A stretch of DNA of 64,000 nt from Escherichia coli O127:H6 str. E2348/69 (GCF_000026545.1 NC_011601.1); one strand, 5' to 3'. Shown: positions 47,166 through 61,634, counted from the first letter of the stretch. Numbers and translations are program-made. The notes: generated by a model not told the origin, from the sequence alone.

Positions 47166-47546
47166 TTAGACGCCCAGTTCGGCACGCTTTTCGGCGATCT
47201 CTTTTGCCAGAGTTTCAGCCGTTTTATTGCCCGGCTTCTTGCCTAGTAAATCCTCATACTGCTGTCGAAGCAGAGTAAGGTCTTCACTTACCGCGCCAGT
47301 GCCATCAGATTTCACTTCCTCCACTACTTGATGAACCGCAGCTGGAGATGGAACATTGATAACTACAGAAGCCGATCTTCCTTTACGCTTTTCGGCGATC
47401 TCTTTTGCCAATTTCGCCGCATCGTTCAGTGGCTCCAGCGCCGTACCTGGTTCGCCGTCATACTCAACTTCAGAGCCTTCTGGCCAGAGGTTGTTATGAA
47501 TGTGAGATAAACGCAGGACGCGGTATCTTGCTTTTTCACCTGACAT
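47166..47546 (-). CDS. 126-aa head-associated protein with internal LAKEIAEKR duplication
   Basis: Carries a 26-bp perfect direct repeat (47184-47209 and 47385-47410), in frame. Confidence 0.5.
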   Translation of the reverse strand: MSGEKARYRVLRLSHIHNNLWPEGSEVEYDGEPGTALEPLNDAAKLAKEIAEKRKGRSASVVINVPSPAAVHQVVEEVKSDGTGAVSEDLTLLRQQYEDLLGKKPGNKTAETLAKEIAEKRAELGV

Positions 47547-52297: not shown

Positions 52298-52504
52298 TTA
52301 CTGACCAAGCAGCGTTTTACCGCTGGTGTTTGCGGTTGAAGTGTCACCCTGCGCACCAGTCAGCAGAGTAGAGCTGCGCCCTGCTGCTGCGCGGCGGCGG
52401 CGCTCTTCGTCGTCACGAGAACTGACAACTGCTGCATCCTGCTCCTGTGGCGCAGCCTGTACTTCTGGCGCTGCTGGCACTGATGGCTTGCTGCCGATAC
52501 ACAT
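52298..52504 (-). CDS. 68-aa Pro/Ala/Arg-rich protein preceding portal
   Basis: ATG behind GGAG (8-nt spacing). MCIGSKPSVPAAPEVQAAP... Confidence 0.5.
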   Translation of the reverse strand: MCIGSKPSVPAAPEVQAAPQEQDAAVVSSRDDEERRRRAAAGRSSTLLTGAQGDTSTANTSGKTLLGQ

Positions 52505-52593
52505 AGCAATAGCTCCGTACGCAATTAAATTATTACCAATTTAACCACATATGATTTATTTAGCGTAGGATATTGACACTTATAACATCAGAT

Positions 52594-52610
52594 ATTACCT
52601 TTTAGGTAAT
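52594..52610. promoter_or_regulatory. Repressor operator, perfect ATTACC-TTTTA-GGTAAT, at 5' edge of the RNA island
   Basis: Exact 17-bp operator palindrome. TTGACA at 52573-52578 lies upstream but no good -10 is visible. Confidence 0.7.
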
Positions 52611-52855
52611 TGGTTCGTGTGTTGAATTGATGAATTGCGGAGGTGGTTATGTAACCGCTTGTGCAGTAGCCCGGAGTACCGCAGCAATAAATTGGGCTTA
52701 AAAGTAAAGGCGGTGGATAAGCGGAGCATCATCTCCGCACATAACTAAAAGCGCGCTTCAGTGAATGACCTTTGAGCCTGGTCGTTAAATCCAAACGGTG
52801 GAGTGCGCTTTCAGGTGTGTAGCAGTACGGCATATGGCACATGTGCCGCAGCGGT

Positions 52856-52891
52856 CCGGATGGGTTCCCTTGATGCTACTTCCCCAGCCGG
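52856..52891 (+). repeat. Hairpin 1 presenting loop motif TTCCCTTGATGCT (52865-52877)
   Basis: CCGGATGGG / CCCAGCCGG stem (one mismatch) with an 18-nt loop. Confidence 0.55.
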
Positions 52892-53055
52892 GTAGCCGGA
52901 ATGTGCAAGCCAGTGTTAGGTAAGCACGGACAGACGATTCACCATCGTGGCGATACGGTGTGACACCTCGGAAGAGACGAGGATGCAACGATGATAGCAT
53001 TGGGGTGACCGGTTAATCCCATGACGATAACCGATACAGGCGCAGTGCTCTCTTC

Positions 53056-53169
53056 GTTGTGGTTAGCTCAGATAGGTTAGAGCTCCATCCATGCTTGCCA
53101 TTGCTGCATGGGCGGGGAATGGGTTCCGAAAGGATCGCCGCGCAGGTTCGAATCCTGCACCACAACCCA
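53056..53169 (+). ncRNA. tRNA-like module (114 nt) with encoded CCA; canonical acceptor, D and T arms but no canonical anticodon loop
   Basis: G-1 + TTGTGGT pairs with ACCACAA + C73, then CCA. D arm is GCTC-AGATAGGTTA-GAGC. T arm is GCAGG-TTCGAAT-CCTGC. 57 nt lie between D and T stems, where a class I tRNA has about 23. Confidence 0.6.
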
Positions 53170-53224
53170 ATCACGCCTTAGGACCGTGATGAAGCGCCCA
53201 TAAGAACAATGCTGTGTAGCCTTT

Positions 53225-53259
53225 GGCGGTGGCAGTTTCCCTTGATGCTGACCACCGTC
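53225..53259 (+). repeat. Hairpin 2 presenting loop motif TTCCCTTGATGCT (53237-53249)
   Basis: GGCGGTGG / CCACCGTC stem with a 19-nt loop. Confidence 0.55.
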
Positions 53260-53338
53260 ACTTTTACACCAGAACGCCATTGCGATGACGTTGCGCTGTA
53301 AACCCGTAAGCCATGGAAGGCACCCTTGCTTCCATTTC

Positions 53339-53363
53339 GCCCGGTTCGTCCGGGCATTTTTTT
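53339..53363 (+). terminator. Intrinsic terminator between structured RNA and the 143-aa ORF
   Basis: GCCCGG-TTCGT-CCGGGC followed by A and T7. The RBS of the next ORF starts 1 nt later. Confidence 0.85.
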
Positions 53364-53375
53364 AAGGTGATTAGA

Positions 53376-53807
53376 ATGAGTAAAGACCTGTTCGACATGA
53401 AGCGCCTTCCGGTTGACCGGGTTGCTGCGAGAGTTGTTGGTAAGGGCGTTGATTGGACGCCAAATAAAGTTATTCAAACTGGTGACAGCGATCTTCCGTT
53501 GCCAGTATTTCCTGCATATAACATTAAAAACCCGCAACAACGACGCGAAGTGCAAGCAATGATCGGAAGAAAGAGCGGGAGATTGACAATAATTGGTCTC
53601 GCGGTCACACAGGGAGCAAAAAATAAAGGGGCTCGCTATGTTGCTCGTTGTGTTTGCGGGATTTATACGTATCGCAGAGCAAAAAATTTCAAGAATAATT
53701 CTGATGATTTTGACGGATGCGAGCGCTGCAGAGAACTGTTGTTTCTCAAAAGGGAAGAAGTTAAACGCAGAACGGGAAAATGGGTTGACTGGAAAGAGCT
53801 GATGTAA
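53376..53807 (+). CDS. 143-aa basic zinc-ribbon protein of unknown function
   Basis: ATG 53376 behind AAGGTGA; the track start 53313 lies inside a hairpin. C-terminal GRLTIIG..ARYVARCVCG(23)CERC pattern resembles a widespread uncharacterised phage zinc-ribbon family (recollection). Confidence 0.6.
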   Translation: MSKDLFDMKRLPVDRVAARVVGKGVDWTPNKVIQTGDSDLPLPVFPAYNIKNPQQRREVQAMIGRKSGRLTIIGLAVTQGAKNKGARYVARCVCGIYTYRRAKNFKNNSDDFDGCERCRELLFLKREEVKRRTGKWVDWKELM

Positions 53808-59270: not shown

Positions 59271-60073
59271 AGGAAATCCTCCCACGCCTCTGGACTGTTC
59301 CAGTGCGGTACGTTGTTTTCAGGTGAGGTCAGTTTGTTCTGTCTGCTGATCTGCAGACGTCTGGCAAGTTTTTGCTCCCATTGCGCATGGTGGAAAGCCT
59401 TACCCTCGGCCATCCAGTAAACCCTGAACTCTGCAAGCTCCTGCGGTGTTGGCTGGCAATCCAGGTTAATACCCTGCAGAGATGACACCCGGAGAAAATC
59501 ATCCGATGGTGACCAGAGCTCATGCATGACAAATTTCCCGAATTGCCCAAGTCCACCAGGAGGGACAAAGTTGTTAATTACGGCGTTGTTGGCGTCAGGT
59601 TCAGGCGGTACTAAACCACCAGTTTTATCGCCCCTCTCCTTCTCTTGGTTATATGACTGGTTAACTGATAGGTTCTGCATCCCGTTTTTGGGATCATTCA
59701 ACTTCCCGTTTTTGGGATCATTCAACTTCCCGTTTTTGGGTATACTCCCAATTTTGGTAACATTACCGTTTTTGGGTATACTCCCAATTTTGGTAACATT
59801 ACCGTTTTTGGGTATGTTTAAAGAGAAAACCCGGACCCTTCTTGTTGCCCCTTTTCTTTCTCCTGTATCTGAAATTAACCCCATACCGATGAGCGAAATC
59901 AGCCCTGCCTGAACCGTTTTTTTATTCAGGCTTGTGTCGGTAACCAGGCGTTCGATGCTTGGATAACACAGGTTATATTCATCGGCTCGATCAGCCATCG
60001 AGAGCAGGATGAGTTTCAGTGATGAGCTGCCCGGATTTGTTTTCCATGCCCACTCTGTTGCGTGTCTGCTCAT
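59267..60073 (-). CDS. Replication initiator (O-like; N-terminal winged-HTH, internal iteron-encoded repeats, DnaT-like C-terminus)
   Basis: 268 aa. The peptide repeats PKNGNVTKIGSI x2 and PKNGKLND x2 are encoded by the ori iterons. Sits upstream of the P-like gene. Confidence 0.75.
   Translation of the reverse strand: MSRHATEWAWKTNPGSSSLKLILLSMADRADEYNLCYPSIERLVTDTSLNKKTVQAGLISLIGMGLISDTGERKGATRRVRVFSLNIPKNGNVTKIGSIPKNGNVTKIGSIPKNGKLNDPKNGKLNDPKNGMQNLSVNQSYNQEKERGDKTGGLVPPEPDANNAVINNFVPPGGLGQFGKFVMHELWSPSDDFLRVSSLQGINLDCQPTPQELAEFRVYWMAEGKAFHHAQWEQKLARRLQISRQNKLTSPENNVPHWNSPEAWEDFL
59681..59813. repeat. Origin of replication iterons inside the O-like gene
   Basis: CCCGTTTTTGGG(A/T) at 59681, 59705 and 59729 (24-bp period). 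Then CCCAATTTTGGTA / ACCGTTTTTGGGT alternating at 59747, 59765, 59783 and 59801 (18-bp period). Confidence 0.75.
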
Positions 60074-61479: not shown

Positions 61480-61634
61480 ATTACCAAAATGGTAATTTTT
61501 TCTCGTCATACCTATTGACACAATCACTTTTTGATCTGATTATTACCTAAAAGGTAATACAAGAGCGCATTGCTCAGGCAGAAACCACCACTTCGTGGCT
61601 TTCCTGTATCTACTAGTATTACCAAAATGGTAAT
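61480..61634. promoter_or_regulatory. Left operator cluster (three perfect sites) with rightward PL-like promoter
   Basis: ATTACC-AAAAT-GGTAAT (61480-96), ATTACC-TAAAA-GGTAAT (61542-58), ATTACC-AAAAT-GGTAAT (61618-34). -35 TTGACA at 61515-20, -10 GATTAT at 61538-43. Confidence 0.7.

Follow-up and report, generated by a model that had tools for sequence, protein, structure and literature searches.

The two hairpins that carry the same 13-nucleotide sequence in prophage PP10 of Escherichia coli E2348/69 are probably separate, vertically inherited elements of one modular non-coding RNA locus, in which the identity of the two copies is probably not maintained and has given rise to a deletion in phage epsilon15. 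The locus would occupy about 0.76 kb of the plus strand, at approximately positions 52605–53365 of the window, which is the whole 64,000-nucleotide stretch of DNA that was analyzed. It appears to be a moron, inserted between a portal-side gene and the large terminase gene. Hairpin 1 is the hypervariable distal arm of a structured core in the upstream part of the locus, and hairpin 2 together with a short U tract forms the 3′ end of an Hfq-bound small RNA (sRNA). Recombination between the two copies removed 372 bp and left the truncated, non-folding hybrid that is present in epsilon15.

Genomic setting of the locus

The host element is the epsilon15-like prophage PP10. The window coordinates are those of NC_011601 minus 2,784,000, an offset derived from the match of E2348C_ncR36 (ncRNA, 2837057–2837169) and E2348C_2757 (CDS, 2837376–2837807), as annotated by Pearl Mizrahi et al. 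2021 (PMC8550237), to the pseudo-tRNA at 53057–53169 and the open reading frame (ORF) at 53376–53807. The hairpins are located in an intergenic region of 876 nt (52505–53380), which matches E. coli O127:H6 E2348/69 with 100% identity and is piecewise 95–98% identical to the Salmonella phages epsilon15, SPN1S, SPN9TCW, and PAT1 from the genus Uetakevirus. The gene order is portal, small gene, hairpin region, plus-strand ORF, large terminase, and small terminase. The ORF E2348C_2757 encodes 143 residues and serves here as context only; it has no Pfam match, and a Pfam search of the three ORFs neighboring the hairpin region gave none.

All features described here are on the plus strand. The putative promoter of the non-coding transcript, TTGACA and TACCTT separated by 17 nt, is positioned at 52574–52604. 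The strict sigma-70 scan did not call this promoter-like site, and the pattern TTGACA-N17-TACCYT is kept in epsilon15, in PM4-type loci, and in locus L029. In the 64-kb window, no Rfam family reached its gathering score and ARAGORN called no tRNA, although the window contains an annotated pseudo-tRNA as well as two sRNAs that have been detected by experiment.

The 13-mer pair and the folding of the hairpins

The 13-mer TTCCCTTGATGCT occurs at positions 52865–52877 and 53237–53249, 372 nt apart, as reported in the initial annotation, and has no further exact copy in the window. Such a repeat is not in itself unusual, since 34 of 100 Markov-shuffled versions of the window contain a 13-mer direct repeat within 500 nt, with a mean of 0.56 per window. 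The sequences flanking the two copies are unrelated, which agrees with the earlier view that the pair is not a simple duplication within a longer degenerate repeat.

Hairpin 1 (52856–52891) contains the first copy of the 13-mer. Its stem, CCGG-A-UGGG/CCCA-G-CCGG, is formed by residues 52856–52864 and 52883–52891, includes one A·G mismatch, and closes an 18-nt loop, just as had been claimed. The predicted stability of hairpin 1, −16.3 kcal/mol, is at the level of shuffled sequences (z +0.48), and the hairpin is not followed by a U tract. The second copy is located in hairpin 2 (53225–53259), the stem of which is formed by GGCGGUGG (53225–53232) and CCACCGUC (53252–53259). Hairpin 2 is very stable, at −23.8 kcal/mol and z −5.06 relative to shuffles. 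In its minimum-energy fold, the stem is extended by CAGU/GCUG and UC/GA, so that CCUU alone remains apical. Seven of the 13 motif bases are thus paired, and the original placement of the motif at the center of a 19-nt loop is just one possible reading.

The third hairpin, GCGGAG-CAUCAU-CUCCGC (52721–52738), folds with an energy of −10.2 kcal/mol (z −2.9). It had been described as exposing AGCATCA; the AG of this segment belongs to the stem, and only CAUCA is in the loop. It was proposed that this hairpin kisses both 13-mer loops through AGCAUCA or, alternatively, that the loops are bound by the 143-residue protein, described as a zinc-ribbon protein. We consider either interaction extremely improbable. 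The 7-nt complementarity does exist and the third hairpin does fold, but 7 nt is also the modal length of a chance complement, and two of the seven AGCAUCA bases are sequestered in the stem. The longest complement to the hairpin 1 loop has a mean length of 7.33 nt at its own locus and 7.46 nt at foreign loci. Furthermore, the sequence of the third hairpin is invariant beside four types of hairpin 1 loop (that of the window and those of loci L005, L057, and L096, which lack UGAUGCU), and five loci with both 13-mers have neither this hairpin nor any AGCATCA. The 143-residue ORF is located directly downstream of the hairpins, but twin 13-mers precede at least four unrelated types of ORF, and the product of the 143-residue ORF has no recognizable RNA-binding domain.

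Loop repeats determine the pairing specificity of the c4 RNAs of phages P1 and P7 and of the CI RNA of phage P4, which are antisense immunity RNAs processed from a phage leader transcript. The repeats of c4 and CI are complementary partners (a′ and b′ against a2 and b2) that covary, whereas the copies in the window are identical and lack a covarying complementary partner. Complementary partners that co-occur and covary in the manner of c4 and CI were not found at the loci with 13-mers, and the Rfam C4 model did not match the window.

Hairpin 1 and the conserved RNA core

Comparative analysis assigns hairpin 1 to a conserved and structured RNA core, so far undescribed, of which it is the hypervariable arm. 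The core (52826–52989) is composed, in order, of a hairpin, GCGGUC, the variable arm, GGUAGCCGGAAUGUGCAAG, a hairpin with a UUCACCA loop, and a hairpin with a GGAAGAG loop. The hairpin at the 5′ edge, CGGCAUAUG-GCA-CAUGUGCCG (52828–52848), is a predicted fold and is conserved. Hairpin 1 is placed between the invariant GCGGUC and GGUAGCCGGAAUGUGCAAG. The 3′ domain of the core (52891–52989), as represented in covariance model R2, is formed by GGUAGCCGGAAUGUGCAAG, a variable hairpin, and the UUCACCA-loop and GGAAGAG-loop hairpins.

IMG/VR contains the 18-mer GTAGCCGGAATGTGCAAG, located directly 3′ of hairpin 1, in at least 120 contigs, and a one-genome-per-species collection has it in 27, which represent 23 distinct organisms. 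The hosts are nearly all Enterobacteriaceae. The surveyed core loci are numbered L005–L125 and L135–L161. At all core loci, hairpin 1 is flanked by the invariant GCGGUC and GGUAGCCGG, and its distal part has dozens of forms, which differ between lineages. The second basal pair of hairpin 1 is U-A in 26 variants and C-G in 36, and is thus paired in 62 of 62. In the first core hairpin (52828–52848), the alignment indicates a double change from A-U to G-C between lineages (CGGCATATG/CATGTGCCG and CGGCGTATG/CATGCGTCG). The two helices of the 3′ domain are 96% paired, with changes on both sides in six of nine pairs. The covariation score of the core helices is 0.48, a value reached by none of 500 shuffles, and slid controls scored at most 0.09.

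Model R2 matches the window with 103 bits. When positions 52450–53450 were searched against Rfam with E-values up to 10, neither hairpin 1 nor the core was matched, and the core 18-mer was absent from the papers covered by a full-text literature search. With covarying helices and no match in Rfam or the literature searched, the core appears to represent an RNA family not described before. K-12 dicBF gave no match to model R2, which places the core outside the classical dicF locus. The survey thus brings to light a conserved, covarying RNA core without an Rfam entry, positioned upstream of many DicF-like sRNAs. Pairing of the GGAAGAG loop with UUCC of hairpin 1 was considered but set aside, because lineages without that loop keep the hairpin 1 motif. 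In L013, a lambdoid-type contig bearing the core, matches to C4 antisense RNA and isrK are located about 2.5 kb away (2538–2726).

Module X and the payload slot

The long hairpin named module X (AGCGCGC…GUCGUUAAAU…GUGCGCU, 52747–52815) recurs at approximately 52990–53056 and upstream of K-12 dicF. An RNase III site is annotated on module X in the epsilon15 record. The module X repeat AAGCGC…GUCGUUAAAU…GUGCGCUUYC-GGUUGUGG frames payloads, and its copy upstream of K-12 dicF is located at approximately 880–960 of L127.

The payload of the window (53057–53169), annotated by PGAP as a pseudogenic tRNA-Gly and elsewhere as E2348C_ncR36, is tRNA-like and was called by neither ARAGORN nor Rfam. It is 113 nt long and has a D arm, T arm, acceptor stem, and encoded CCA, as well as an 11-nt “anticodon” loop and a long extra arm. 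In SPN9TCW, the payload slot holds a true tRNA-Arg (L004, 1914–1987). The slot of PAT1 contains a longer, unrelated insert (L003, approximately 2325–2430), in which only the GUUGUGG/CCACAAC-CCA stem is kept.

The large ornate non-coding RNAs GOLLD and ROOL are borne by prophages and often joined to tRNA genes. The likeness of the window to GOLLD and ROOL is an analogy for the locus as a whole only. Neither has an Rfam match in the window, and their host clade is different. It is conceivable, if rather unlikely, that the locus belongs to a class of prophage non-coding RNAs that has so far gone undescribed, is of modular build, and is widespread in Enterobacteriaceae. Such an RNA would combine a conserved core bearing a hypervariable arm, exchangeable tRNA or tRNA-like payloads between long hairpins of the RNase III type, and a DicF-like sRNA with a hypervariable loop at the end, and loops 1 and 2 would be programmable determinants of specificity. 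If this were true, the identical loops of the epsilon15/E2348 lineage would mean that both loops can be aimed at one target.

A DicF-like sRNA at hairpin 2

Hairpin 2 belongs to the sRNA at 53204–53266, the U tract of which occupies positions 53262–53265. Downstream of the core, 85 of 125 loci contain a hairpin of the form UUGGCGGU-NN-CAG…CUG-NN-ACCGCC followed by UUUU(U)ACA. There are 39 distinct hairpins of this kind; their outer stem is 98% paired, with UA in place of GC in one lineage. K-12 DicF has the same hairpin form. Hairpin 2 conforms to it as well, with a UUUGGCGG…CCGCC hairpin and, at the 3′ terminus of the RNA, a U tract.

Covariance model R1 was built from 19 hairpins located downstream of the core, with the lineage of the window and K-12 left out. 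Model R1 matches the window at 53214–53273 with 52.7 bits (E 4e-10) and K-12 dicF with 20.7 bits (E 0.025), and in 125 kb these two were the only matches. The Rfam DicF model (RF00039) scores 16.1 bits (E 1.4) at 53211–53260, below its gathering threshold of 48 bits, whereas K-12 dicF reaches 76.7 bits. Model R1 and the shared form identify hairpin 2 as DicF-type, although diverged. DicF-type hairpins therefore span a much wider diversity than is represented in the Rfam family. Hairpin 2 was missed by the strict terminator scan, since its loop is longer than 8 nt and it is followed by only four U residues. The 5′ limit of the sRNA at 53204 is taken from read coverage, and no promoter-like site was found directly upstream of it.

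DicF, an inhibitor of division with a 5′ end generated by RNase E from a polycistronic prophage transcript, is encoded in the dicBF operon of prophage Qin; like the window sRNA, it is prophage-encoded and bound by Hfq. Both RNAs have a UUUGGCGGU-NN-CAGUU…CUG-NN-(A)CCGCC hairpin with a U tract as the 3′ end, a pyrimidine-rich seed resembling an anti-Shine-Dalgarno sequence that extends from the 5′ strand of the upper stem into the loop, and an upstream long hairpin, AAGCGC…GUCGUUAAAU…GUGCGCUUCC, in a longer transcript. In contrast, the loop sequences of the window sRNA and DicF differ (UUCCCUUGAUGCU and UUUACUCCGUGACU, respectively). The window sRNA is preceded by the conserved core and the tRNA-like payload, both of which are missing from the K-12 dicF locus, and dicB is absent downstream of the window sRNA.

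Hfq-bound partners and the probable seed

In the RIL-seq data for enteropathogenic E. coli (EPEC), the hairpin 2 sRNA has the coordinates 2837204–2837266, corresponding to 53204–53266 of the window (PMC8550237). It is RNA2 in all listed chimeras, with extents of 53204/53239–53266, and takes part in five interactions (PMC8550237). The yfbQ–lrhA intergenic region is its partner in 59 chimeras from three libraries (p 3e-116) and lpp, from −38 to +43, in 25 chimeras (p 1e-23); bfpP is a further partner (PMC8550237). These published data indicate that the hairpin 2 sRNA shares with DicF the association with Hfq and the action in trans on mRNAs.

The lrhA fragment of the chimeras, mapped through the E2348/69 assembly CP059840.2, extends from −122 to −55. 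It includes GAAACUGCCA at lrhA −95 to −86, which is a perfect 10-nt complement of UGGCAGUUUC in the sRNA (53230–53239); a complement of this length was reached by 5 of 2000 shuffles. The 13-mer contributes only UUC to this best lrhA duplex. RNAduplex of the whole sRNA with lpp gave energies at the level of shuffles, and windowed duplexes of the 13-mer with lpp produced no clear site, the best being −7.4 kcal/mol at the Shine-Dalgarno sequence, compared with −12 to −13 kcal/mol for other segments. The duplex prediction locates AAACUG of lpp at +13 to +18.

The homologous segment of DicF, CAGUUUUACUCCG, pairs with the ribosome-binding site of ftsZ, and the pairing was validated genetically by Balasubramanian et al. 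(PMC5069750). The 5′ strand of the upper stem of hairpin 2 together with the loop (CAGUUUCCCUUG…) matches this segment of DicF position for position, and therefore constitutes the probable seed of the window sRNA. By homology, the first part of the second 13-mer copy would lie in the seed. In E2348/69, the most likely targets of this seed are GAAACUGCCA of the lrhA leader and AAACUG of the lpp initiation region. Unlike those of DicF, the partners of the window sRNA are lrhA, lpp, and bfpP, and its complementarity to ftsZ is at chance level: within ftsZ −45 to +30, no stretch of complementarity exceeds 6 nt in silico, a length that 624 of 1000 shuffles also attain, and no ftsZ chimera is present among the chimeras listed. 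A so far unnamed EPEC sRNA thus gains a probable family identity as DicF-like and a testable seed, with partners among motility, envelope, and pilus genes.

The core-genome sRNA ArcZ has the seed UUUCCCUGGUG, of which about 9 of 12 bases agree with the hairpin 2 loop UUUCCCUUGAUG (53236–53247). ArcZ, too, is chimeric with this lrhA leader fragment in the EPEC RIL-seq data, and UCCCUGG of ArcZ is matched by CCAGGGA at lrhA −88, adjoining the site predicted for the hairpin 2 sRNA; the two adjacent sites are located within −95 to −82 of the lrhA leader (L134). ArcZ is encoded in the chromosomal core genome on a scaffold unrelated to the window sRNA, and the resemblance of its seed to the hairpin 2 loop may be convergent. 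PasA and PasC from the same strain are Hfq-dependent prophage sRNAs that are cleaved from longer transcripts, have a seed overlapping the terminator stem, and commonly have tRNA genes in their flanks. They are encoded in other prophages, PP2 and PP5, and probes for Pas sRNAs did not match the window.

A second Hfq-bound sRNA candidate, E2348C_2757.EST5UTR, is located at 2837269–2837365 (table S6 of PMC8550237), which corresponds to 53269–53365 in the window. Its chimeras include cfa, perC, and the PP10 genes E2348C_2764 and E2348C_2766 (PMC8550237). The candidate ends in a strong terminator, with a stem at 53339–53355 identified by the terminator scan, immediately before the ribosome-binding site of the 143-residue ORF. 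The loop of its internal hairpin again bears CCCUUGCU.

Persistence of the 13-mer among related loci

The initial annotation took the shared loop sequence for a presented recognition element and named a lack of conservation of the 13-mer in related islands as what would refute the idea. The 13-mer is restricted to one close lineage and is not conserved at the level of the family. In E. coli PM4 (approximately 80% identity), both hairpins are at the same places, with compensatory changes in the stems and GUCGGUACCAG/CUGGUACCGAC in hairpin 2, and the 13-mer is absent from both loops, which differ from those of the window and are unrelated to each other. Long words common to both loops occur only in the lineage of the window. 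Both loops are pyrimidine-rich in most lineages and contain UCC(C)UU, which in long types of hairpin 1 is paired within the arm.

The pair of 13-mers is present in eight distinct loci from Escherichia, Salmonella phages, and Citrobacter, including SPN9TCW, PAT1, and several viral and Citrobacter contigs. The copies are separated by six different spacings between 355 and 630 nt (355, 356, 359, 372, 394, and 630), and the content between them differs. The persistence of the twin 13-mers in eight loci could reflect selection rather than linkage. This observation favors the dual presentation of one seed, in which both loops are selected for the same 13 nt in the lineage of the window. The target would be bound twice by a precursor or by two processed RNAs, or hairpin 1 would serve as a competitor or reserve copy. 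We consider such arrangements unlikely. The loops are hypervariable across the family and yet identical here, the pair has been kept in loci from three host genera despite payload swaps, and the UCC(C)UU motif is common to both loops family-wide. However, in L008 and L070 hairpin 1 has changed from C to A (TTCACTTGATGCT) without a matching change in hairpin 2, and in L070 and L103 the TTCACTTGATGCT hairpin 1 is combined with another type of hairpin 2. The similarity of loop 1 to loop 2 is 5.4 within a locus and 5.16 between foreign loci, so there is no excess for the own partner. The lack of a U tract and the shuffle-level stability of hairpin 1 also speak against a dual seed, as do the best lrhA duplex, which takes only 3 nt of the motif, and, as weak evidence, the EPEC RIL-seq data, in which no coordinates from the hairpin 1 region occur among the chimeras listed.

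In our view, the two loops came to share 13 nt by accident, given their similar composition, or through a short patch of gene conversion, and their identity is not a maintained feature of the two separately inherited hairpins. The proposal of a presented recognition element holds insofar as both hairpins are conserved RNA elements, the stems of which change while the pyrimidine-rich loop is kept. It is a fair description of hairpin 2, an Hfq-bound homologue of the DicF seed and terminator, but not in the sense of a protein-binding site or a kissing partner.

The deletion in epsilon15

Epsilon15 has a single 13-mer, which is preceded by the sequence that flanks copy 1 on the left and followed by that on the right of copy 2. 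Global alignment with the window opens only one gap, of 372 nt (window 52865–53236), and the sequences to its left and right are 97–99% identical. In epsilon15, the 5′ core hairpin, GCGGUC, and the 5′ arm of hairpin 1 are retained and joined, by way of the 13-mer, to the 3′ arm of hairpin 2 and its U tract. The hybrid does not fold (z +2.19) and is matched by neither model R1 nor model R2. The same junction is present in three viral contigs, one of which has a different flank background. Exactly 372 bp are missing and orphan half-stems are kept, and the alignment therefore shows the epsilon15 arrangement to be a recombinational deletion between the 13-mers. Furthermore, both complete hairpins are ancient and widespread, which identifies epsilon15 as a deletion derivative rather than an empty insertion site.

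The opposite polarity, in which a mobile or site-specific cassette of 372 bp was inserted into an epsilon15-like empty site with duplication or recombination of a 13-bp core, is very unlikely. A direct repeat is present at both junctions and epsilon15 provides a precise empty site; however, this “empty” site holds half of the covarying core, known from more than 100 contigs, and the non-folding 3′ half of a DicF-like hairpin, and neither an intact ancestral empty site nor ends and a recombinase belonging to the cassette were found. No transposase, integrase, or recombinase gene is adjacent, and in PM4 and classes A, B, and E, both hairpins are present without the repeat. The payload between the copies varies among phages, but the variation is bounded inside the interval (approximately 52990–53170) and not at the 13-mers. 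The inner ends of the interval match as an inverted repeat at 9 of 12 bases, which is a weak match between two GC-rich stem arms. Deletion between the 13-nt repeats explains the truncated and previously puzzling intergenic region of epsilon15, and the demonstrable consequence of the 13-nt identity is thus genetic, as the substrate of this deletion. Terminal inverted repeats of the 359-nt interval were rejected as a candidate feature, because the match of 9 of the first 12 positions does not increase when 20 are compared, and was judged to reflect the composition of GC-rich stems.

Other repeats in the window

Dense tandem direct repeats with periods of approximately 24 and 36 nt (CCGTTTTTGGG…) occupy positions 59680–59803 and have an iteron- or operator-like appearance. 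The window also contains an exact 26-nt direct repeat at 47184–47209 and 47385–47410, with the copies 201 nt apart, and an exact 17-nt direct repeat at 61480–61496 and 61618–61634, 138 nt apart.
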